Sequence record: NC_019404.1
Direction: 5' to 3' (one strand)
From: Escherichia phage vB_EcoS_ACG-M12
DNA: 46,054 nucleotides
The position numbers and the translations under genes are program-made. Below the pieces are notes generated by a model that worked only from the letters and a program-made list of their open reading frames with translations, searched no databases and was not told the DNA's origin. Numbering within the stretch: position 1 is the first letter of the stretch; each line of letters begins with the position of its first letter. Below, piece by piece: positions 1 through 46,054 of the stretch.

Positions 1-138
1 TGAACTCTTTCTTTATATGCAAACTTGAAACAGGCGATTCTCATTTTTGTGTGATGCATTCGATTGAAAAAGTCAATAGATGAGAGAAAGAAAACGGGCA
101 ATTTACGCAACTTTTTGCAAATTAATCCTCGCCACAAG

Positions 139-400
139 GTTACATGTAACTTTAGTTATCGCGTGTAGATAATCTGCAATAGTTACGCATATAACGCCAA
201 ATCACGCGCTGGTTACAAATAAATCCCTTATATATAAACAACTTAGATTTATTATTATTATTATTATATATATGTAACTAATGTAACCATGTCATCGGGC
301 GCGTTGATTGAAAATCCTATATTGCGCGCGACTTTTATTTATATATTAGCGGAAGGTATAGCACCCCATTTAGGTCGGTTACAGCTGTCTACTCGGTTAC
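139..400. repeat. GTTAC/GTAAC iteron cluster with 12-bp perfect palindrome GTTACATGTAAC (139-150) and (ATT)5 run (251-265)
   Basis: GTTAC or GTAAC copies at about 139, 146, 182, 212, 274, 283, 378 and 396; AT-rich non-coding leader of the first + operon. Confidence 0.6.
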
Positions 401-478
401 ACTCGCAGGAATAAAGGTGTCAGCAAAATAATTTGTGTAAATTTTGAGTATAACGCTTGTCTACGCGTAATTGAGGTA

Positions 479-488
479 GTATAGTTAT
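479..488 (+). promoter_or_regulatory. -10-like box GTATAGTTAT upstream of gene 528
   Basis: Same TATAGTTA(C) box as in the repeated cassette, but without the upstream dyad box. Confidence 0.35.
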
Positions 489-527
489 CTCACACCAAAG
501 AGAGGTGTCATTGAAAGGGTTATTAAA

Positions 528-3486: not shown

Positions 3487-3561
3487 GCTCTGTTAGCTTA
3501 ATGGAAAAAGCCGCAGCCTTCTAAGCTGTTGATGGTGGTTCGACTCCACCACGGGGCGCCA
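3487..3561 (+). tRNA. tRNA-Arg(UCU)-like, 75 nt with encoded CCA
   Basis: Hand-folded cloverleaf: acceptor GCTCTGT/ACGGGGC (two G-U pairs), D-stem GCTT/AAGC with GG in the loop, anticodon stem GCAGC/GCTGT with loop CTTCTAA, T-arm GGTGG-TTCGACT-CCACC, discriminator G, CCA. Confidence 0.6.
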
Positions 3562-24144: not shown

Positions 24145-25105
24145 AGTAGAAGCTTGGAATAAATGGAAGTGCCATTGATATATTTGTGTCGAAAGGGAAC
24201 TGAGCGCCAGTCTGAGTTGAATAGTTACCTATTACAGAGCCAGGAACAGCCCTAACAGAGCCTCCAGACATGCAAACGCCCTTGTATCGCAAGTTGTTAT
24301 ATCCTCCAGTAACTCTAGTCGTAGCGCCACATCTAAGAATAGGGAAGAATCCACCATTTATTGACTGATATCCATTGCTTATTTGTATAAATCCACTAAG
24401 TACGAATGGTCGCCTAACGCTTGAAAAAACAATCTGACCAGAGCTATTTGACATTGTTAGTCCTGGTCCGGCTGGTGGGGGTTCATTTCTGAATATCACC
24501 AGCTGAACATAAGTACTTGCCGAAACATCATCTGTACCTCCGTAGGTTATATCCCTGCACCATATTGTTGATCCATCTGATTCAAGTGATACGTTTGGAT
24601 TATCCCACTTGCCGAATGGTATGCCGCTAACTGGTAGCGATGCCGCCCCGTTAACCTGTATGCCTCCAACCCATGCTGCTGACATTAGTCTCGAGTTGCT
24701 TGATATAGCAAGGAAATCAGTTGAGTTCTCAACGAGTATCCCTGGGCTTGATGAAGGTGATGCTGGTAGAATTTCAAAACAATTACCCGCAAAGTCAATT
24801 ATTCGACCATTGGCACCATTGAAGTTACTAAGTGTTATCCTGCCAACTCCGTCATTAACCTTTTGGAATCCGTTCATGTAATAAACTTCAGGTATAACAT
24901 CGTAAGCATCAACGTGGACTGCCTTCGTTGGTAGGCAGAAAGCCGTAGAGCCAGGAGACATTGTCAATCCAAAATCCCACGAACTTGCTGGGGTTGAAAG
25001 TCCATTGGTATTTATTGATCCAGTCACAGCAGGTGCCCTTAATCCTGCCGTTATTTCCATCGCTGGTCTTCCGTCATTGAGGTCAATCAATATACCCTGC
25101 GGCAT
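24143..25105 (-). CDS. beta-rich Gly/Ser/Asn-rich protein (320 aa), possibly receptor-binding or tail-associated
   Basis: Composition only; last gene of the minus operon; start at the ATG after AAGGAG. Confidence 0.35.
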   Translation of the reverse strand: MPQGILIDLNDGRPAMEITAGLRAPAVTGSINTNGLSTPASSWDFGLTMSPGSTAFCLPTKAVHVDAYDVIPEVYYMNGFQKVNDGVGRITLSNFNGANGRIIDFAGNCFEILPASPSSSPGILVENSTDFLAISSNSRLMSAAWVGGIQVNGAASLPVSGIPFGKWDNPNVSLESDGSTIWCRDITYGGTDDVSASTYVQLVIFRNEPPPAGPGLTMSNSSGQIVFSSVRRPFVLSGFIQISNGYQSINGGFFPILRCGATTRVTGGYNNLRYKGVCMSGGSVRAVPGSVIGNYSTQTGAQFPFDTNISMALPFIPSFY

Positions 25106-25356
25106 TATTTCCACTCCTTGCTGCCATGATCTGCAATAGAGCCACCGTAACCGCCGCCAGCCTTGCTTTCAATTCCGGCGTAGCGAACATCAACCTCACC
25201 AGCCGGAACAACTACGCCACCTTTCCATTTAGCTACGCACACACCATTTGCTTGTGTTGCACACCAACCATCCGGGCGAGGACCAGATGAGCAACCTACC
25301 ATCATGATTGCTGCTGCGGCGATGATTGAAAGTTTGATTAATTTAGTCATTTTCAT
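25105..25356 (-). CDS. lipoprotein (83 aa), Cor-like superinfection-exclusion candidate
   Basis: Signal peptide with lipobox MMVGC|SS; small size; located next to the tail fibre genes as cor is in T1/phi80-type phages (from memory). Confidence 0.45.
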
Positions 25357-25436
25357 GTTCCTTAGAATGTGTGTTTCGTTTTGATGGAGTAATCATATCT
25401 TAACTGTTAGGTTTGTCTTTAGCTATTCGTGCTATT
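25357..25436 (-). promoter_or_regulatory. conserved intergenic cassette, minus orientation
   Basis: Reverse complement reads AATAGCACGAATAGCTAAA ... leader CCATCAAAACGAAAC before the lipoprotein gene. Confidence 0.45.
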
Positions 25437-25679
25437 CAACCATCTGTTATATTTATCCCTCTCCTTGATTGCCTTTTCAAGTGACTTGAATCTTAAAAGT
25501 AGCGGCATACAGTCAACACCCATAATTAAGGATTCGTCGCAGCTATTTGCGCCAGTCAGCCAAAGAGAGAAGTATTGTTGATCGAGGCCGTAGTTCCTGT
25601 CTTTATTGACCCTAACGCTAACAACTTTAAATTTTAAACCAGCCAACTTAACCTTATCTATAAATTCTGACTTATTCAT
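25419..25679 (-). CDS. hypothetical protein (86 aa) ending ...NSTNS
   Basis: ATG 8 nt after AAGGAG; C-terminus encoded by the dyad box. Confidence 0.45.
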   Translation of the reverse strand: MNKSEFIDKVKLAGLKFKVVSVRVNKDRNYGLDQQYFSLWLTGANSCDESLIMGVDCMPLLLRFKSLEKAIKERDKYNRWLNSTNS

Positions 25680-25753
25680 CTTGTTGCTCCTTTTTAGTTT
25701 ACCTGGAAATGGTACATCACCCATGAGATTTGTCTTTAGCAATTAGTGCTATT
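25680..25753 (-). promoter_or_regulatory. conserved intergenic cassette, minus orientation
   Basis: Reverse complement of 25735-25753 reads AATAGCACTAATTGCTAAA; precedes gene 25419..25679. Confidence 0.45.
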
Positions 25754-26050
25754 GGTTACGCGTAACCGATGTAACTCGATGTATACCATATCCATCCGCG
25801 GGAAATCAGTTACGCCATATTGCGCACAGTTACGCTTTAGTTACACTAAAATATCTATATATATAAAGGGTTTAGATAATTATTATTATTATCTATATAT
25901 ATAGTGTAACTGCTGCAACTCATAATATTGGTATGTTGCGTTTGTTTTTCTATATGATGATTATCTTTGTTATCTGGCGTGGCTAAATGGATGTAGGGTG
26001 TGGTGCACCACATAAAAGATACCGTTACATTGGTTACATGTGAGTTACAT
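25754..26050. repeat. GTTAC/GTAAC iteron cluster with 14-bp perfect palindrome GGTTACGCGTAACC (25754-25767) and (TTA)n run (about 25878-25891)
   Basis: Direct repeats CAGTTACGC at 25808 and 25827; further GTTAC copies at 25839, 25906, 26023, 26033, 26045; divergent intergenic region. Confidence 0.6.
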
Positions 26051-26177
26051 TGAGGATTTATGCGGTCTGCGGTGGCTAAAAACGTAACAAAGGAGAGCCT
26101 ATACATGAAATTACGTCATTTGACGCGTAATCATAATTTATTAATCGGTGATATCTATTGGACTGCGCTGCCACCCT

Positions 26178-26225
26178 CTCATATGATCAACCCATCGAAA
26201 GCAAACAACCATAGAGAGACGCAAA
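26178..26225 (+). promoter_or_regulatory. -10-like box plus CCATCGAAAGC leader upstream of gene 26226
   Basis: CTCATATGATCAACCCATCGAAAGC resembles the cassette leader; no dyad box. Confidence 0.3.
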
Positions 26226-26420
26226 ATGGCTTACTTCATCATTAAAGAGAAAAACAACGCACTATTCGGCGACTGCTACTTCGGAGGTGAGGCAGGTTAC
26301 ACTACAGATAAGAATGAGGCAGACCGATTTGAAACGAAGGAAGATGCCAAATCTGTCCTGACCGGATACTTCACAGAAGAAGATTTTAAATTGGTTAAGA
26401 TTGTTAAGGTTAAGGAGTGA
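26226..26420 (+). CDS. hypothetical protein (64 aa)
   Basis: ATG after AGAGAGA; first gene of the recombination operon. Confidence 0.45.
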   Translation: MAYFIIKEKNNALFGDCYFGGEAGYTTDKNEADRFETKEDAKSVLTGYFTEEDFKLVKIVKVKE

Positions 26421-27655: not shown

Positions 27656-28306
27656 ATGCAAATTTCAGAATCATGCAAATCAATTTTAAACGCGCTACAC
27701 ACTGCAAAAGCAATGTTTGCAAAGGCTGAGCGCTCTAAGCAGAACTCGCACCTTAAAAACAAGTACGCAACATTAGATGATGTTTTAGCAGCCGTGGAGC
27801 CTGGTTTAGATGAGTGTGGGCTTGTAATGTTTCAGAGCGTAATTGATAGTGAAGCAACGGGGCTGCTAAAGGTAGAGACAAAGCTATTCCACGCAGAGTC
27901 AGGGGAGTGGGTTAGCTTCTTAATGATTGTTCCAATCAGCAAGAATGATGCTCAAGGTTACGGTTCTGCGCTCACATATGCTCGACGCTACGGCATTACA
28001 GCAGCTTTAGGTCTTAGTCAGGCAGATGACGATGGTAATCTAGCAGCGAAAGGTGTTAAAGACTTTAAGCGTGAGCTTGAAAAGTGCAACACTCTTGATG
28101 AGCTTCGTAACGTCTGGAAAGAAGCCAAGCAATCACTAGATGCTGCTGGATGGAAGGTTTTCGAACCTCACATTATCGAGCGAAAGGCAGAGATTGAGGC
28201 TAACGCGGCAACTGGCTTCAACCCAGCTACGCCAAAGAAAGTTGCAGAAAAAAGTAGTACTCAAGAAAAAGTTGAAGTAGAATCTCAACAAATCGACACA
28301 TTCTAA
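27656..28306 (+). CDS. erf: Erf-family single-strand annealing protein (216 aa)
   Basis: NSHLKNKYATLDDVLAAVEP and GSALTYARRYG segments match P22 Erf signature regions as recalled from memory. Confidence 0.65.
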   Translation: MQISESCKSILNALHTAKAMFAKAERSKQNSHLKNKYATLDDVLAAVEPGLDECGLVMFQSVIDSEATGLLKVETKLFHAESGEWVSFLMIVPISKNDAQGYGSALTYARRYGITAALGLSQADDDGNLAAKGVKDFKRELEKCNTLDELRNVWKEAKQSLDAAGWKVFEPHIIERKAEIEANAATGFNPATPKKVAEKSSTQEKVEVESQQIDTF

Positions 28307-28353: not shown

Positions 28354-28815
28354 ATGCACGTAATTACAGGTCAGATTCGCAAAGCTCCTTACACTAAAGA
28401 TGGTCAGAATGCCAAAGGTAACTGGAAAATGTACGCCATCGAGATGAGCGAATCATACAAGACTAAAGATGGCGAGCGTAAGTACAGTAATTACCGGATT
28501 ACGATGTTTGCCAGTGAGGCGCAGATTAGTTGGTATGATGAAGCATTTCAGGAAGGAAAAGTTATTTCTGTTAGTGGTGATTCATTGGCGGTTAATGAGC
28601 GTGAGCATAATGGAAAGGTTTATATTACGCTTGAGTTGCAGAATCCTCGATTGATGTTTAGCCAGCGCGGCAGTGAATTAGCTACACAGCAACAGCGCCA
28701 GCAGCATCAGCAACAGCAGCGGCAGCAACCACAGCATCAAAGCCAGTTTGAAGACGATATTCCGTTTGCTCCTATTGGTCTTCAGTACGGTATGTCAAAT
28801 ATTTATGTACTATAA
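28354..28815 (+). CDS. ssb: single-stranded DNA-binding protein (153 aa)
   Basis: Gln-rich linker QQQRQQHQQQQRQQ followed by the acidic tip FEDDIPF; unusual 15-aa extension after DDIPF. Confidence 0.7.
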   Translation: MHVITGQIRKAPYTKDGQNAKGNWKMYAIEMSESYKTKDGERKYSNYRITMFASEAQISWYDEAFQEGKVISVSGDSLAVNEREHNGKVYITLELQNPRLMFSQRGSELATQQQRQQHQQQQRQQPQHQSQFEDDIPFAPIGLQYGMSNIYVL

Positions 28816-29215
28816 AGTCTGTTTCAAATGTGGTGGGCTTAAGCCCATCACGGAGTTCTATAAACATAAAGCCATGGCTGACGGACGTGTAAATAAGTGT
28901 AATGAATGCAATAATGTTGATGTTAAATCAAATAGAAAATCAAAAATAGAATATTACAGAGAGTACGATAGAGAAAGGGGCAATAGACAGAAGGATGGTT
29001 ACGTTAAGGAGTATAGATCAAGAAACCCCATAAAATATAATTGCCACACGATTTTAAATAACGCTATAAGGGATGGTAAGATCAATAAAAAACCTTGCGA
29101 GGTTTGCGGGAATGATAAGGCGGTAGCTCATCATGATGATTACTCAAAACCAATGGATGTAAGATGGCTATGCCAAGCTCACCATATGCAATGGCACGCA
29201 GAAAACGGAGAATGA
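28805..29215 (+). CDS. HNH endonuclease with zinc ribbon (136 aa)
   Basis: CxxC ... CxxC (CFKCGG, CNEC) and AHHDDYS...WLCQAHHMQWH; start at the in-frame ATG overlapping the ssb 3' end (track start is TTG). Confidence 0.6.
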   Translation: MYYKVCFKCGGLKPITEFYKHKAMADGRVNKCNECNNVDVKSNRKSKIEYYREYDRERGNRQKDGYVKEYRSRNPIKYNCHTILNNAIRDGKINKKPCEVCGNDKAVAHHDDYSKPMDVRWLCQAHHMQWHAENGE

Positions 29216-29257: not shown

Positions 29258-32074
29258 CGAAGCTGTATTTACCTGAAGATATGCACCATTAGTTGCACCA
29301 AACCATGCGTAAGCAGATCCGTAAGTTGTTGGGTTGTCATTTAAAATGAAATCACCCGCTCTAATTACGCACTTTGCTCCATATGTATCAGTGGGTCTTG
29401 CACTAAACCCATAGTCAACATATCTAAAACCAACCTTCGTTACGTTATCGTTAAGCGGGAAGATCCTTAAGAAGCTGGAATCTCTAAAGTCATTGTTCCT
29501 GAAAATTCCTCCTGTAAAGTTATCCATATCAAACATTGTTGTTAAACTTGAAGCAACAGTATTCATGAACTTGTTGCCTTCATATGTCGGAGCTACTACT
29601 TCATAGCCAACTCTTAGCTGAACAAATCCCCCATCAATAATATTGTCCTTGACTATTGGATATTGCCCGCCGATTGCTAAGCCACCAAACCCAGGTGTAA
29701 ATTTGCAACTATTATTACTAAATATAGTGCCAACCCACGCCTGATTTGTAAGGTATGGTGCCTTAGTGTCTGTCATGGTGTTCCCGGTGATAATCAATCC
29801 ATTCTTGGCCTGGATTCCCTCCTGGTAGCCCTGAATCGCTACGCCGCCACCAATCATAATGTTGCTGGATATAATAATGTTGCTCAACCCCTCATTAACA
29901 CCCCAATCACTTTCTGCATCATTTGTTATCAGTAAGTAGTGAGAAGAAGCCCTGCCAGTAGCGTCCGTAGTTATAATGCTTGTATTGCCTTTGCATATAA
30001 CATTGTTTGCCGCAAAAACCTCAACAAACATACCAGCACCTTCGTAGTAGTTATCCGTAACCGTTACGTTATTGCCAGCCGGGGTTATCCTTGACTGGAT
30101 AGATATTGGATAATAGAACTTGTTGGCGTGAGCGTAAGACCTTCGGCTTCCCTCGGATATTGCATAATCCTCCGCGAAAGTATGCCATGCCCTTCCTGAC
30201 TGTTTTGTTGTGTTTCCTATAAACTCTGAGTAGTCACAGTTTCTTGTGATTAAGCAGTAGTTAGCGTTGTATCTGAAGCTTGAATTTCTAAGAGATACGA
30301 ATGCATTAGGTAAGCCATTAAGAGCATCGGCATTAACAAAGGCCCTCGAGGCATTAACCTCCATACCCTCGATCACAACTGATGCGCATCCTTCAACCAT
30401 AAAACCAAACCAGTCTTCTCTTGGTTTATGCTCTGTATCCGTTGGTTGGATTGAGTAATCTGAAAAGTCAGTATTCCAGTTGAGTCCGCTAGCTTTAAAT
30501 GTGCAATATTTAAGCCCGAAAACAACCCTCTCGGGTGATGTGCTTCCAGAGATATCAATATCAACATCATTATTGGCAAAAATGTCAACAGTAAGTCCAT
30601 TGAGGAAGAATGCCGTTTGCCTTAACACTCTGTACTTATCATTGTACTGAACACCATCGGAGAATGAGACTTTCAGTCTTCCAGCGCTAATTCTTACCTT
30701 CCTGTTTGTATTGTGACCAAGGTTTATACATGCCATAACCGAGGCGTTTGATTCATTAACTCCAGACACATCATGACCAGCCCATTCGGTATGGATATCA
30801 TCAACACCTCCCGTAAACCTAACCCAGCAACCATTTTTACCTGGTGATGTCTCACCCGCTCCGCTAAGGAATCCTGGGAGCGTGGAATATGTACCATCAA
30901 ATGGAACTGTTGGGCTAAAGATGGTAACCCCATTGTGACTACTCTTGCTTACTGATGGATCCCAGTAAAACAAACCACCTCCAGAGTTTGCTCCAGAAAT
31001 ATAAGACCTGACATTTGCCAAGTTTCCATTCGTAGTTGGTTGCCGGATTAGTTCATAAATTGAATTAACTGAAGATAGCCCTAAATTACTCCTGGCAAGG
31101 CTTTTATCTTCAATATCAGAGAAATTCAATGATTTGTTGAAAGTCTCAGATTTTGAATAAACATCAAGTAAGCCCCTTACTCGCTGGGCGCTAGCTCCGC
31201 CAACCTGACTTCCTGATGCGACATAAAGCGCCTCTCTTGAATAGTAAGTTTTGCTTGGTGCCGTGCCAGTCTGAGTTAAATCAATCACCCTGTACGCATT
31301 ATCTGAGCCGGTAGATGCTGAAACTTGTATGTTCTTAACACCAGTAAGCCCCCTTGCTGACTTAACCTCAATCGTACAAAGTGTGCTATCGGAGTAGGTT
31401 GTATTTATCACCTCTGGAGCGTTGATCATTGCTGACTTTTGGCATAGGTATCTAGCCCCGGACTTGAAATCAAACGTATTCCAGTCAAGTTCTGTCAACT
31501 GAGGTGTATTCGAGCCACCAATACCAATATTGGCAAGAGTTACCAAAGTACCAGCGTCACCAGCATTATTAATTGCTGCAATTGTAGCGTCACGGGCAGC
31601 TGTTGTTGTGTTTCTTGCACTAACAGCAGTAGCAGCGCTATCTGCGGCGGCAATCTGGCTAGCTAAAGCATCCGCTGCTCCTTGCACTGACTGGCTTGCC
31701 AATTGCTCAAAGCGAGGCCAATCAAAAGAATCCTGACCAATGAAATCAATCAGGCTCTGAATGCTAGTTTCCCTACTCTGATAATAACGAAGTGTCTCCG
31801 CTACATTTTGAGCCAAACCCTGAACGCTAATCCCATCATGAGCAAGAATGGCATATCCAGTACCAGCAGGAACAGTTTCGCCATTTGGGTTATATACAGA
31901 CAATGAAGTGTCGCTGGTGATTTCAGAGATGGTGTAAATCTGCACAGGCTCTGTTTTGAATACAATTGTAGCACCAACACGGATTAGCGTTAGTGGCATG
32001 GTCCATTGAGTGCCAACACCAGTAACTTGACCGTTAGCTGCTAAACTGGCAGTTCCAGTATCATAAATTGCCAT
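29255..32074 (-). CDS. tail fibre/receptor-binding protein, possibly with a beta-helix domain (939 aa)
   Basis: N-terminus MAIYDTGTASLAANGQVTGVGTQW typical of fibre N-termini; Ala-rich shaft; Asn/Gly/Thr-rich C-terminal two-thirds; start at the ATG after GGAG. Confidence 0.6.
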   Translation of the reverse strand: MAIYDTGTASLAANGQVTGVGTQWTMPLTLIRVGATIVFKTEPVQIYTISEITSDTSLSVYNPNGETVPAGTGYAILAHDGISVQGLAQNVAETLRYYQSRETSIQSLIDFIGQDSFDWPRFEQLASQSVQGAADALASQIAAADSAATAVSARNTTTAARDATIAAINNAGDAGTLVTLANIGIGGSNTPQLTELDWNTFDFKSGARYLCQKSAMINAPEVINTTYSDSTLCTIEVKSARGLTGVKNIQVSASTGSDNAYRVIDLTQTGTAPSKTYYSREALYVASGSQVGGASAQRVRGLLDVYSKSETFNKSLNFSDIEDKSLARSNLGLSSVNSIYELIRQPTTNGNLANVRSYISGANSGGGLFYWDPSVSKSSHNGVTIFSPTVPFDGTYSTLPGFLSGAGETSPGKNGCWVRFTGGVDDIHTEWAGHDVSGVNESNASVMACINLGHNTNRKVRISAGRLKVSFSDGVQYNDKYRVLRQTAFFLNGLTVDIFANNDVDIDISGSTSPERVVFGLKYCTFKASGLNWNTDFSDYSIQPTDTEHKPREDWFGFMVEGCASVVIEGMEVNASRAFVNADALNGLPNAFVSLRNSSFRYNANYCLITRNCDYSEFIGNTTKQSGRAWHTFAEDYAISEGSRRSYAHANKFYYPISIQSRITPAGNNVTVTDNYYEGAGMFVEVFAANNVICKGNTSIITTDATGRASSHYLLITNDAESDWGVNEGLSNIIISSNIMIGGGVAIQGYQEGIQAKNGLIITGNTMTDTKAPYLTNQAWVGTIFSNNSCKFTPGFGGLAIGGQYPIVKDNIIDGGFVQLRVGYEVVAPTYEGNKFMNTVASSLTTMFDMDNFTGGIFRNNDFRDSSFLRIFPLNDNVTKVGFRYVDYGFSARPTDTYGAKCVIRAGDFILNDNPTTYGSAYAWFGATNGAYLQVNTAS

Positions 32075-32096: not shown

Positions 32097-32115
32097 AATA
32101 GCACGAATTGCTAAA
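32097..32115. promoter_or_regulatory. isolated dyad box AATAGCACGAATTGCTAAA at the 5' end of the tail fibre gene, without a downstream -10 or leader
   Basis: Only copy not followed by a TATAGTTAC box and leader; lies between a TACAAT-like element and the SD of the minus-strand fibre gene. Confidence 0.4.
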
Positions 32116-32140: not shown

Positions 32141-32162
32141 AAAAAAACCTCCCGAAGGAGGT
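32141..32162 (-). terminator. rho-independent terminator for the minus-strand primase transcript
   Basis: Reverse complement reads ACCTCC-ttcg-GGAGGT plus T7. Confidence 0.65.
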
Positions 32163-33088
32163 TAGTTATTCAATAAATCACTTGCCTTATATATCTTCTT
32201 CCTTATTCCGCTCTTGAATGAGTTTTCATCATTTGGTATTACCACATCAAGATTGCGATCATCAGCAACGGCGAGTAAATCAAAATCATGACGAGTACAA
32301 GCGACGCGTAACTTGTAGTCTCTAAGCGCATAAGCAACCATTTCCATGTTGTAACTGGAGTAGCAAACAAGCACACACCGGTTGCCAGTAGCAAGATGAA
32401 CGCGAACACCATCAATCCAATTATCGACCAGATAAGAGTACTCATCATCCTTAAGGGAACCAATAACAGAAACAGATTGGCGAGAATAATCTTTTGCAGC
32501 ATAACTAACATCTCCTTCCTCATTGATAAACATTACATTGCACATTTCTTCTGATATACCGTCACTATAAGCCATGAAGCACGGTATTGCGTGTATTAAT
32601 TCACCGGATTTTGTCCTACCAACATCAAATCCAAACTCGCTATAAATACCCTCGTATGTACTTAGCGGGGTTGATTCTACTCTTTCCGTCCTTTCCAGTA
32701 TCTCTAAGCATCTTTCGTGGTCAATCTGCGCGCCCATCTTGTATGGTGATGTCCTCGATGCTCTTTTGTTTGCTTTAGCTACTATCTCAACTGGAACCAG
32801 ATTTAACCAGTCACCTAATACATTTATACACTCACTAAAAGACTCTCCTCTTAGTTTCTGCACCCACAAAATTCCATCGCCTGACCCACACTGGTTGCAA
32901 ATGATTCCACCATCCCCAGGTTCACTAACTTTATCAGTCCACCTGCTACGGTCATTACCGCCACAATACAAGCATGGTTGATGCTTCTTAGTTTTAAAGA
33001 AGTTTGGGTCTGCCCCGCAAATCTGAACCATTGCGTCAGCCCATAAACCTTTCATCTTTTGTAGTACTTCTTTCTTATCGTGATTCAT
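32162..33088 (-). CDS. DNA primase-like protein with N-terminal zinc-binding motif (308 aa)
   Basis: CLYCGG-x17-CNQCG zinc ribbon near the N-terminus; start at the ATG 5 nt after GGAGG. Confidence 0.45.
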   Translation of the reverse strand: MNHDKKEVLQKMKGLWADAMVQICGADPNFFKTKKHQPCLYCGGNDRSRWTDKVSEPGDGGIICNQCGSGDGILWVQKLRGESFSECINVLGDWLNLVPVEIVAKANKRASRTSPYKMGAQIDHERCLEILERTERVESTPLSTYEGIYSEFGFDVGRTKSGELIHAIPCFMAYSDGISEEMCNVMFINEEGDVSYAAKDYSRQSVSVIGSLKDDEYSYLVDNWIDGVRVHLATGNRCVLVCYSSYNMEMVAYALRDYKLRVACTRHDFDLLAVADDRNLDVVIPNDENSFKSGIRKKIYKASDLLNN

Positions 33089-33143: not shown

Positions 33144-33650
33144 TCAAATCGTGCTTTTTTTCTCTGCTTCTCTCTTTTTCTTATTCTCTTCTTTAATCTT
33201 ACGCCATGATCTGGCAGGCGGCTTTGTTGCTAACTCCTCTTTCTTAACAACTCTAAGCATTTCTCGACGGTCACAACGCAATGTTAAAGGCTTACCATTA
33301 CTATCAAATCGAAGGTCTGGACGAATGAAGCTAGCTCGATAACCCTCGCCTGTACGCTTGTACTTACCGTGTAATTTCTGCGCACCTTTAGCTGAAATCA
33401 TTCCGCGTTTACACCATTCAGAAACTACTGCATGTGTCACATTAGCGGCTTTTGCTAGCTTCGATTTACCACCATAAAAATCAAGTACAATCTCAAGTCG
33501 GGCGCGTAAACTAGCTCTCACCTCATCCTTCAAAGTGTAGTAGCCATAAGGTCGACTACGTTCTTTCTTGTCTTCACCGCGATGAGTTCCGTTATTACCA
33601 TTTAATGTGCGCTTGTCTACTTCACCAGTTGATGCCGCAATTCTCGTCAT
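33144..33650 (-). CDS. HTH DNA-binding protein with basic C-terminal tail (168 aa)
   Basis: LAKAANVTHAVVSEWCKRGMISAKGAQKL helix-turn-helix-like segment; Lys/Glu-rich tail; divergent from the helicase gene. Confidence 0.45.
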   Translation of the reverse strand: MTRIAASTGEVDKRTLNGNNGTHRGEDKKERSRPYGYYTLKDEVRASLRARLEIVLDFYGGKSKLAKAANVTHAVVSEWCKRGMISAKGAQKLHGKYKRTGEGYRASFIRPDLRFDSNGKPLTLRCDRREMLRVVKKEELATKPPARSWRKIKEENKKKREAEKKSTI

Positions 33651-33661
33651 TATCAATCTCC

Positions 33662-33750
33662 AATAGCACTTTTTGTTAAAAGTCGTTTTGATTTAGTGTT
33701 AGTATTGTACTCAACAAAACGCCACAACACAAATTAATAGGGCTTAACAA
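33662..33750 (+). promoter_or_regulatory. conserved intergenic cassette (AATAGCACTTTTTGTTAAA variant) in a divergent promoter region
   Basis: Box at 33662-33680; TAGTAT-like -10; precedes the helicase ATG at 33751. Confidence 0.45.
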
Positions 33751-36166: not shown

Positions 36167-36242
36167 CACGAATTGCTAAAGAAGATTTTAAAGGATGGGG
36201 TATAGTTACTCCATCGAAACGAAACGCAGAGAGAGAAACAAA
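36162..36242 (+). promoter_or_regulatory. conserved intergenic cassette (AATAGCACGAATTGCTAAA ... GGTATAGTTACTCCATCGAAACGAAACG)
   Basis: Box overlaps the stop TAG of the VRR-NUC gene; TATAGTTAC at 36201-36209. Confidence 0.55.
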
Positions 36243-36440
36243 ATGGCTACTATCTATACAGGAATCAACTACGAGTCACGCAAAACTGGTTACATCTACG
36301 AGCTAGTCGTTACTGAAGATGGTTACATTCTCGAGGATATCGACGACTCAAATTACGCATTCGAAGTTACCCCAACATACAAAGATGATTTAGAAACTGT
36401 TAAAAACGCATTTGGCGAAAAATTTGATGAGGTATCATAA
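36243..36440 (+). CDS. hypothetical small protein (65 aa)
   Basis: In-frame ATG after AGAGAGAGAAACAAA (track start is upstream, inside the cassette). Confidence 0.4.
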   Translation: MATIYTGINYESRKTGYIYELVVTEDGYILEDIDDSNYAFEVTPTYKDDLETVKNAFGEKFDEVS

Positions 36441-42589: not shown

Positions 42590-44173
42590 TCACCCCATTA
42601 CACGTGGATTAACATAAACACGGTCATCAATCATGCAAACGTAGTTACGTTCTTCAAGCATTGGGATTAAGTGGTCCTTAATCTTCGTCATTACACCGGC
42701 CTGAGATTCGAATGGCTTAACCTTTCTTGCTGACTCATACAGCGCGCGAAGGCTAACAAAACCTTTACCAGCCTTACCCATTTTCAAAGCCAGGTCGATA
42801 AGTTTATTCATCTCTGCGTTATCACCAGCATGACCTGCGGCATTAGCAGAAGATAAATATGTTTTGCTTAACTCGTTAAACATTAATACCGCCTCCTGCA
42901 TGGTTTCTAATTCAATCTCACGAGACTTTTTAGGATTGCCACCTTCTTCAGATACCCAATTGCGAACAGTATGAATAACCGAAGCTATACGGATTGCCTG
43001 CTTGTCAAATTTACCAAGTGCGCCTCGTAACATAGTGTGACTGTATTTACCTCCATCACGTAAGTGCGGTTCCATATCCTGGCGAGCACGGTTTAGATAA
43101 CGCATGGCTGAATCACTAATAGTTAGCTTAACATCCACCTCACTCATGATGTTGTGAATAAGTTTAAAGTAAGTCGCCTTAAGCGCTCCATCAATAGGTT
43201 CATAAGTTGAGCGACCTTCATCATCAACAAAAACACGTTCACCTAAGAATGATTTCTCACGAACAAGCAAAAAACGCTCTGATACACCGATACCGCGAGC
43301 ACCAGCATTCATGATTGCGTTGATTGTCTCATCTTGTGCAATTACAGAGATGCAACCCAGCGCAGTAAAAGACATGTTGTTTTCAGCGTTAGCACGAGCA
43401 ATAGAAACATCGCCAGAGTCCCATGCCTTAAGAACCAATTCACTGTTTGTCTTTTTGCTCCCGTCGCCATAAGTCATGCCTAATAATGAGTTTACAGAAG
43501 TTGCTTCATCAGATATTACAGCAAAGTTACCTTGACGGAAGTTAATTCGCGCAAGACCTTCTGGAGTTGTATCAGATACCGGAAAAACAACATCGCATAA
43601 CTTCTCTAACTTCTCCTCAAGATTCTCTTTATCCTCAAATAATCTCGCCATTTCAGAAGGTGATTGCTCCTGCTTCATTTCTTTAGCGAGAGAAGATAGT
43701 TTTGCCATAATCTTTTTTCGTTCACGCTTACGTTCCTCGTTGATTCTGTCTCGTTCAGCAATCATTGGCGCAGTTGCCAGGCTGTTAATTGCTGATTTAC
43801 CAGTTGAAGGAGGTTGGCTTGTAACAACATAAAGCGCGGTTGGCTGAGTTGTTCCGTGATACTCAACGGTAAAACGACCCAGCATTGCAGAAGATACGCA
43901 GCCTAAAAAGTGCATATAGGCAGAAGATGATGGGAACTGTACTGATCGGGCGATGTTGGCTGACAGCTTGCCTACCACATCAAAATCATTCCCGAGGCTT
44001 ATTACAGGATATTTATCATTGCAATTCTCAACCTCTACTGGGTCCTTCCAGAATGACTGAGCATATCGCATACCGTTCGCTTTAATTGCCACACGAAGCG
44101 GGGAGATGCCTTGCTGCTGCGCAATAGCCATAACCTGGTCAACACTCAACTTACTGGATTCGAACTCAAACAT
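42590..44173 (-). CDS. P-loop NTPase, DUF3987-like, putative replication/helicase-associated protein (527 aa)
   Basis: Walker-A-like YVVTSQPPSTGKSAIN; size; start at the ATG 10 nt after GGAG (track start is GTG). Confidence 0.45.
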   Translation of the reverse strand: MFEFESSKLSVDQVMAIAQQQGISPLRVAIKANGMRYAQSFWKDPVEVENCNDKYPVISLGNDFDVVGKLSANIARSVQFPSSSAYMHFLGCVSSAMLGRFTVEYHGTTQPTALYVVTSQPPSTGKSAINSLATAPMIAERDRINEERKRERKKIMAKLSSLAKEMKQEQSPSEMARLFEDKENLEEKLEKLCDVVFPVSDTTPEGLARINFRQGNFAVISDEATSVNSLLGMTYGDGSKKTNSELVLKAWDSGDVSIARANAENNMSFTALGCISVIAQDETINAIMNAGARGIGVSERFLLVREKSFLGERVFVDDEGRSTYEPIDGALKATYFKLIHNIMSEVDVKLTISDSAMRYLNRARQDMEPHLRDGGKYSHTMLRGALGKFDKQAIRIASVIHTVRNWVSEEGGNPKKSREIELETMQEAVLMFNELSKTYLSSANAAGHAGDNAEMNKLIDLALKMGKAGKGFVSLRALYESARKVKPFESQAGVMTKIKDHLIPMLEERNYVCMIDDRVYVNPRVMG

Positions 44174-45756: not shown

Positions 45757-45995
45757 TTTGTTACCTTTTGAGTTTTTTTTGTTATCGACATCTCTTCAAC
45801 GTACTCGCTACAACTCGGGATTTTACTCCCGGCCCGGCATCCTAACAAAAGGACCCGCTCGGCGCTTTGGTGGGTGAGGTAACGCTTCCTCACATTGCGC
45901 GGTATCATTTACCCTTTTTAGTCCCTTTCGGGAGTGACTCAGAGTCTGCTACCGTGTCGATGAAATGAAGTATACGCACATCGATTCAATATGTC

Positions 45996-46014
45996 TTTAG
46001 CAAAAAGTGCTATT
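45996..46014 (-). promoter_or_regulatory. dyad box, minus orientation (reverse complement AATAGCACTTTTTGCTAAA), at the head of the terminal minus operon
   Basis: Followed in the minus direction by about 240 nt of GC-rich structured leader before the first small gene. Confidence 0.4.
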
Positions 46015-46054
46015 TATCAGATTACCCAGAACCACTGGTATCATAAAGGCATTA

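Follow-up and report, generated by a model that had tools for sequence, protein, structure and literature searches.

Two intergenic regions of the T1-like Escherichia phage vB_EcoS_ACG-M12 (NC_019404.1), here called A and B, carry a real, duplicated and conserved module of predicted protein-binding boxes set around an A+T-rich core. The window is the complete, circularly permuted genome of 46,054 bp, belonging to Guelphvirus (Drexlerviridae, Braunvirinae). Escherichia virus ECH1 (MN164484.2; Drexlerviridae, Braunvirinae, Guelphvirus) is 99% identical to it, and phage vB_EcoS_SCS31 is 100% identical across both regions. We tentatively read regions A and B as two copies of a replication-origin-like module conserved across Drexlerviridae, at somewhat less than an even chance; the main rival is a bidirectional early promoter/operator.

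The strongest single result concerns the cores. When the A+T content of whole genomes was compared across four subfamilies (the window, T1, Rtp and TLS), the only 60-bp segments reaching at least 85% A+T in each genome were the two module cores, at 210-292 and 25836-25911 in the window, 199-304 and 29997-30090 in T1, 212-295 and 28084-28159 in Rtp, and 196-283 and 28809-28887 in TLS.

Similarity, conservation and anatomy of the modules

The intergenic span of region B (25725-26059; 335 bp) lies, as the first-pass annotation had placed it, between a leftward unit (minus strand: 25419-25724, a Phage_lipoprotein-family gene at 25105-25356, and a membrane protein) and a rightward recombination unit on the plus strand (exonuclease VIII, Erf and SSB). 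Region A straddles the ends of the record (45757..46054 and 1..527; 828 bp); since the genome is circularly permuted, it is also a divergent intergenic region. The modules proper occupy 25754-26088 in B and 137-402 in A. The repeat region had earlier been drawn as 25743-26225, which holds up to 26088, while the right-hand 140 bp (~26090-26225) are a decayed gene fragment outside the repeat module.

The earlier proposal of two similar modules 25.6 kb apart was borne out by local alignment. Over ~120 bp, A and B align with a score of 77, compared to 22.6±3.3 (maximum 40) for dinucleotide shuffles, so that their similarity exceeds what composition provides; the next-best place in the genome scores 30. 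GTTAC occurs 113 times genome-wide (68.5±7.5 expected), and exact GTTAC/GTAAC copies cluster in 25755-26088 (11 copies) and 139-400 (8 copies). For GTTACA, 7 copies fall in region A, 6 in region B and 18 in the remaining 44.9 kb; thus 13 of 31 copies are found in 2.5% of the genome. An unbiased screen of 6-mers common to both regions ranked GTTACA first, with 24-fold enrichment. The enrichment of GTTAC(A) in A and B is not due to chance. Outside the two modules, GTTAC is also more frequent than expected (~94 copies compared to 68±7.5), for which codon usage is our guess. A further cluster at 36205-36370 was rejected as a member of the system: its five copies lie within a small coding gene, all on the plus strand, have other flanks (GTTACT, GTTACC) and resemble codon pairs GGT TAC.

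Related phages keep both copies, as was found for Rtp, AKS96, phiEB49, T1 and TLS and in every genome examined, and the positions and spacings of the B module are kept at ~80% identity in 132 phage records. Protein-anchored searches of IMG/VR for further loci returned close relatives only with RecE and no matches with DUF7174. It is very improbable that the two regions have no specific function and are A+T-rich low-complexity stretches alike by composition, or a drifting old duplication. The simple repeats (TTA)n and (TA)n do supply part of the alignment score, and the left arm alone gives a weak A/B comparison (25 compared to 16.2±2.8, shuffle maximum 33). However, box positions and spacing are kept across subfamilies and in both copies at the identity just given, no genome examined has lost either copy, boxes are preserved where an overlapping reading frame has decayed, and box spelling changes in concert within a lineage.

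Fourteen B and four A modules from Braunvirinae and Rogunavirinae were aligned (18 in total). Their common plan spans ~300 bp and reads from left to right as three boxes on the minus strand, four on the plus strand, the A+T core, two on the minus strand and three distal boxes on the plus strand, with the distal three-box clusters ~50 bp to the left and ~90-110 bp to the right of the inner arrays and core. Counting degenerate copies along with the 11 exact GTTAC ones, B holds about 12 boxes; A holds about 10, and box positions are kept in all 18 modules. The label 'iteron' is apt for these boxes, which are short, helically phased at 9-11 bp, opposed in orientation around the A+T core, and co-varying between A and B of one phage. 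The box core conserved across modules is T(T/A)AC(G/A)C or xTTACA rather than GTTAC; the GTTAC spelling is lineage-specific, and most relatives have TATACGC/TTTACGC boxes.

In module B, the distal-left cluster (25754..25785, minus strand) has a 9-bp period and comprises GGTTACGCGTAACC (25754-25767), ATGTAAC (25769-25775) and ATGTATA (25779-25785); it is kept as TAC(G/A)CGTAAC-CGATGTAAC-TCGATGTATAC in the 14 B modules. Its first element is indeed the perfect 14-bp palindrome noted before. The perfect form is confined to SCS31 and ES, and most relatives read GTATACGCGTAACC; the palindrome as such is therefore not a conserved feature of the module. A CATCCGCGGGAAAT box (CATCCGCGGAAAAT in the common plan) follows at 25793..25806; every B module has it, as does Rtp module A, and module A of the window lacks it. 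The left array (25807..25847, plus strand) consists of four boxes spaced by 10, 10 and 11 bp, CAGTTACGCC, ATATTGCGCA (degenerate), CAGTTACGCT and TAGTTACACT, the ACGC/TTACA cores of which are invariant in the 18 aligned modules. The CAGTTACGC direct repeats reported earlier exist as two copies at 25807-25815 and 25827-25835, the first having been placed one base too far to the right (25808). The further GTTAC copies, the (TTA) run and TATCTATATATATA listed for region B are likewise all present.

The A+T cores, towards which the inner arrays point from both sides, span 56-59 bp at 86-89% A+T, should be the most readily melted DNA of the genome, and contain TATATA and TTTA(G/C); within them ATTATTATTATTA is invariant in the 18 modules. 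The module B core (25846..25904; 86% A+T) includes TTTAGA, (TTA)4 at 25878-25892, and TATCTATATATATA at 25852-25865 and 25890-25903. We propose it as a putative unwinding element; it also holds weak promoter-like hexamers. The right array (25904..25920, minus strand) has two inverted boxes with a 9-bp period, GTGTAACT and CTGCAACT, and AGTTACACTA/TAGTGTAACT form a perfect 10-bp inverted repeat spanning the core. In the distal-right cluster (26022..26052, plus strand) three GTTACAT boxes are spaced by 9 and 11 bp and align with TATACAC-TATACAC-GTTACAT of Rtp and EC3a at identical spacing. A further conserved box, AACGTAAC, lies at 26082..26088 on the minus strand, with AAAAACGTAAC invariant in SCS31, Rtp and EC3a.

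Module A follows the same order. A palindrome-like element, GGTTACATGTAAC, at 137..151 is followed by a left array with exact 10-bp phasing (180..219, plus strand; TAGTTACGCA, TATAACGCCA, AATCACGCGC and TGGTTACAAA), a core of 89% A+T at 218..273 with TTAGAT and (TTA)6 at 249-266, a right array of two inverted boxes with a 9-bp period (272..289, minus strand; ATGTAACT and ATGTAACCA), and a distal-right cluster, TCGGTTACA-GCTGTCTAC-TCGGTTACA, with a 9-bp period (375..402, plus strand).

Two open reading frames cross the module B core, 25746-25904 (+) and 25855-26106 (-), encoding 52 and 83 amino acids of Y/N/I-rich low complexity, and some related GenBank records annotate a 'hypothetical protein' over A+T core DNA; these core-spanning frames are very likely spurious. 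The only match to Rfam covariance models in the window was a tRNA at 3487-3558, with none in regions A or B.

Box spelling and the putative binder

The spelling of the boxes is specific to each phage and yet common to its two modules. The 6-mers enriched in both A and B are GTTACA in SCS31, GTTACA and TAACAC in T1, GTGAAC/AGAACA/TGGAAC in TLS, and TATACA plus TCCGCG in Rtp, where TCCGCG is the top-enriched word common to both regions and has 5 copies in the A region. At unchanged spacing, this phage has GTTAC where relatives have TATAC in at least three boxes (25809, 26024 and 26033). Since spelling varies from phage to phage while the two modules of one phage agree, these data point to a co-evolving, phage-encoded protein rather than a host factor as the putative binder. 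Host response-regulator sites, of the kind of OmpR- or ArcA-like direct repeats at 10-11 bp that the boxes resemble, were set aside, because box spelling varies among phages of the same host and because a Keio screen of the T1-like phage LL5 indicated no requirement for a host transcription factor (PMC7229145), a result that also fits a phage-encoded rather than a host binder.

The boxes have outlived a gene. In Rtp and EC3a the distal-right boxes overlap the annotated N-terminus of a small gene, and in the window this small reading frame has decayed while the boxes were retained. Rightward of module B, the first gene (26060-26420) is split: its C-terminal part (26226-26420) shares 83% identity with EC3a gp41 and is, in the same alignment, also a close match to Rtp gp46, and its N-terminal part (26105-26245) lies in another frame, is just 35% identical and truncated, and has a strong ribosome-binding site before the ATG at 26105. 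The annotated ECH1_41 is probably a decayed fragment. Conservation, boxes surviving this decay and the shared spelling support the interpretation of the boxes as protein-binding elements under selection.

Orthologous modules are generally closer to one another than A is to B within a phage. By this comparison A and B are old paralogues, and concerted evolution of the two within a phage was rejected, with Rtp module A as the exception. The latter (130-300), which carries a CCGCGG box, is 75% identical to Rtp module B (27990-28160), against only 59-62% for the A modules of other phages, which suggests gene conversion of A by B. In TLS, module B sits between two rightward genes with no leftward gene, and core and flanking boxes are kept in the phage's own spelling, AGAACAA on the left and TGTTTCCATTGTTCT on the right. 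The modules of A and B in the window lie in divergent intergenic regions and head early-type units, as had been supposed; given the arrangement in TLS, a position at the boundary of early units does not define the module.

Each phage also has its own tandem 8-9 bp repeats ~100-130 bp to the right of the A+T core, the position of the GTTACAT cluster in the window: in T1, GATTAACAC is repeated three times at 401-431, and in TLS GTGAACAC, GTGAACAGC and GATGGAACA occur at 411-436 and 28996-29020.

Replication origin, promoter or packaging site

Where the first-pass annotation had left a shared regulator and an origin side by side, the weight has shifted towards an origin. In the mechanism that we propose, a phage-encoded, sequence-specific protein would bind the boxes on both sides of the core, melt the core and then load itself for bidirectional unwinding, whereupon the phage primase and the host polymerase would begin synthesis; outward-facing promoters adjoining the module may aid opening. 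On fold and gene linkage the best candidate for this binder is a DUF3987 protein (42590..44173, minus strand), encoded in the operon headed by module A. Its AlphaFold model (predicted local distance difference test score, pLDDT, 87) is an MCM-like AAA+ helicase, and its C-terminal residues 451-521, through which it would contact the boxes, match many winged-helix domains. Phmmer searches against PDB sequences gave no matches for this helicase or for the Cro/YdaS-like helix-turn-helix protein of the replication module (33159-33650, minus strand), which also includes a zinc-ribbon primase (32162-33088, minus strand).

The closest parallel in layout is provided by Staphylococcus aureus pathogenicity islands (SaPIs). 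Their origins contain an AT-rich centre and 6-12 penta- or hexanucleotide iterons, two or more of them to either side of the centre and pointing in opposite directions, which are bound by the winged-helix domain of the self-loading Rep helicase, an AAA+ protein with a C-terminal winged-helix domain (PMC9371898). Modules A (about 10 boxes) and B (about 12) match this iteron number, both match the opposed arrangement with four plus-strand boxes, the core and two minus-strand boxes, and the predicted architecture of the DUF3987 protein matches that of the helicase. The SaPI origin lies directly downstream of the rep gene, unlike the situation in this phage and matched only in the distant relative L022. 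The phage further differs from SaPIs in having two copies per genome, additional distal clusters of boxes, and a trinucleotide run that is conserved. No sequence similarity of the phage helicase or iterons to those of SaPIs was detectable; the comparison made here is one of layout and predicted fold.

Four distant relatives of the helicase (L021, L022, L023 and L024; 36-40% helicase identity) were compared for their intergenic DNA. In L021 a 557-bp gap at the head of an operon for a helicase, a primase and a DEAD helicase contains (CAA)11 with 10 of the 21 CTTACA copies around it. Upstream of the L024 helicase gene, at a distance of ~450 bp, are (TAA)9 and CTTAC boxes spaced by 9-10 bp. L022 and L023 have an AT core with (TAG)4 directly downstream of the helicase gene, after a terminator. 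The L024 metagenomic contig ends inside (TAA)9 (1-30), so that the left half of the module is missing; the assembly probably broke at this repeat. In L022 (8344-11075) a single operon encodes the DUF3987 helicase together with the YdaS/Cro-like helix-turn-helix protein and the zinc-ribbon primase, and in T1-like phages these three genes are split over two loci (33650-32162 and 44173-42590).

The core could instead carry back-to-back host sigma-70 promoters, with the phased boxes binding a phage regulator that tunes both loci, to which we assign an appreciable minority of the probability. Both module copies head early-type operons. In most B modules a position-weight scan found a rightward TTTACT/TTTAGA-17/18-TATATT spanning (TTA)n (score 7.9-9.1) and a leftward TATAAT with a poor -35 element, both at conserved positions. 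In the back-to-back -10-like hexamers of most relatives and in its place between divergent genes, the core resembles bidirectional sigma-70 promoters with a shared A+T-rich -10 region. GTTACA matches 4 of 6 positions of the -35 hexamer, and promoter prediction pairs it with AATAAT; other groups have annotated predicted promoters at the modules. Moreover, the left array is placed like upstream activator sites relative to the rightward hexamers, and phage-specific box spelling suits a phage regulator, for which the Cro/YdaS-like gene is at hand, as well as an initiator. However, flanking box arrays and distal clusters do not belong to a plain sigma-70 promoter, DNA with the A+T content of the cores is expected to contain promoter-like hexamers by chance, and in the window and TLS the hexamers are poor, with -10 candidates lacking the critical final T (TATATA in the window, TATATC or TATATA in TLS). 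Higher-scoring promoters lie outside the module, adjoining each first gene. The best one of region A, TTGTCT-17-TATAGT at 457..485 (+), is 43 bp before the first rightward gene, and others are found in T1 at 30319 (TTGACT-16-TATAAT) and in Rtp at 28200 (ATGTCA-17-TATAAT) and 477 (TTGATA-16-TAATAT). Leftward operons bear a 21-nt repeat with its own -35-like end, and TLS module B has no leftward gene to serve. The (CAA)11 and (TAA)9 of the distant relatives (27-33 bp) are too long for promoter spacers, and the third divergent region of the genome (33651-33750) is without such a module. Both the retention of module B in TLS and the position of the best sigma-70-like promoters outside the module were counted for an origin. 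Literature searches for transcription start sites or transcriptomes of T1-like phages returned no usable data.

Several observations weigh against an origin. The T1-like modules and the gaps of the distant relatives have no demonstrable sequence homology beyond A+T-rich runs, and we therefore claim only a shared architecture. The modules are not next to the helicase gene as in SaPIs, its start being ~1.6 kb from A and 16 kb from B. Positionally conserved promoter-like hexamers of the TTTACT/TTTAGA-17/18-TATATT type occur in the core of most relatives. GC skew only tracks transcription, reversing wherever its direction switches, and carries no information as an origin indicator. When box spelling in four phages was compared with putative recognition helices of the gp23-like helix-turn-helix protein, the helicase winged-helix and the DUF7174 first gene (528-1025 in the window), no clean pattern emerged, four genomes being too few for such a correlation. 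The origin is inferred from layout, conservation and the helicase model. Several origins are present in T4, T7 and herpes simplex virus, but two in a genome of 46 kb would be unusual.

Comparison with other origins gave partial likeness. Herpes simplex oriS/oriL and the SV40 core origin (GAGGC pentamers) share an A+T-rich centre and inverted short sites between divergent early genes, the sites serve an origin-binding helicase, and each genome has multiple origins; as neither the proteins nor the hosts are related to those of the phage, this is an analogy of layout only. Lambda-type origins and DnaA-dependent oriC likewise have repeats adjoining an A+T-rich region. The lambda iterons are 19 bp long and lie inside the initiator gene, unlike the far shorter boxes of the modules, which are not in a gene. 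In contrast to oriC, regions A and B contain none of the DnaA boxes (TTWTNCACA; 4), GATC sites (65) and IHF cores (4) of the window, a further point against an origin.

The trinucleotide runs, (TTA)n here and (TAA)9, (CAA)11 and (TAG)4 in the distant relatives, could be comparable, as single-strand tracks, to the DnaA-trio elements of bacterial origins. In its most specific form our proposal is that the twin modules are T1-like origins fired by the MCM-like, self-loading DUF3987 helicase, whose winged-helix domain would read the 5-7 bp boxes and for which the trinucleotide run would be the single-strand binding track; this version is possible but rather doubtful. Origin and promoter functions are compatible and not mutually exclusive, because origins activated by transcription exist.

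That module A lies within a pac region for a P22-like small terminase, with B as a second or vestigial copy, is improbable. The T1, Rtp and TLS GenBank records and that of the window all start ~200 bp to the left of the module A core, the T1 record has an annotated 2.8-kb terminal repeat from base 1, and the TLS authors set pac at base 1 by restriction mapping plus a match to the motif AGATTT; module A contains AGATTTAT. From these record starts and the placement of pac in TLS it follows that module A is near pac. However, a second full copy 25.6 kb away that is kept in every genome examined is unexpected for a unique pac site, the submolar-fragment data of TLS give one series start, neither module B (AGATAAT) nor Rtp module A contains AGATTT, and in distant relatives the analogous element stands beside replication genes, not terminase genes. 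Short repeats occur at the record starts: TLS has GATTTGATTTGATT, and those of T1 and Rtp contain TTGCA/GCAAT. The rest of the probability falls to something not considered here.

The adjoining 21-nt repeat and the significance of the modules

One copy of a 21-nt direct repeat of T1-like phages (aaATAGCACnnnTTGnTAAAA) abuts module B. This repeat is likewise family-wide, intergenic and without an assigned function, and has been described for TLS (PMC11447400). With up to 2 mismatches, ATAGCACnnnTTGnTAAA has 21 copies in the window compared to 0.6 expected, mostly along the direction of transcription (for example 1306-1323 +, 25735-25752 -, 33663-33680 + and 45996-46013 -; the copy at 32098-32115 is on the strand opposite to its flanking genes). 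The copy next to module B (25735..25752, minus strand; ATAGCACTAATTGCTAAA) faces the leftward gene and probably belongs to the leftward operon's own promoter; it is distinct from the GTTAC boxes. Sequence distinguishes the two elements, as GTTAC boxes do not match ATAGCACnnnTTGnTAAA and only the flank at 25735-25752 does. The 3' end of the repeat (TTGCTAAAGACA) is -35-like, and a TAnnnT hexamer follows 16-17 bp further on at several sites; the repeat may be the phage's own promoter type.

Literature searches found no mapped replication origin or early regulatory circuit for T1, and no origin is known for its family, which was counted for the origin reading. A 2024 re-analysis of TLS reported no origin-type repeats, listed open questions on intergenic repeats and does not mention the GTTAC-box modules (PMC11447400). 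No description of the module was found in the literature searched.

The twin modules provide two short, precisely bounded DNA targets plus a named candidate protein, which makes the question directly testable in a group whose namesake, T1, is one of the original seven T phages and whose members are notorious laboratory and fermentation contaminants. If the modules are promoters/operators instead, they would define the family's early switch. If they are origins, DUF3987, a large uncharacterised helicase family, would be linked to origin recognition, and the model of a SaPI/MCM-like self-loading initiator would extend to virulent enterobacterial phages, with initiation of this style from two origins in a classical virulent coliphage. 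An origin would also offer a handle to engineer or disable T1-like phages.

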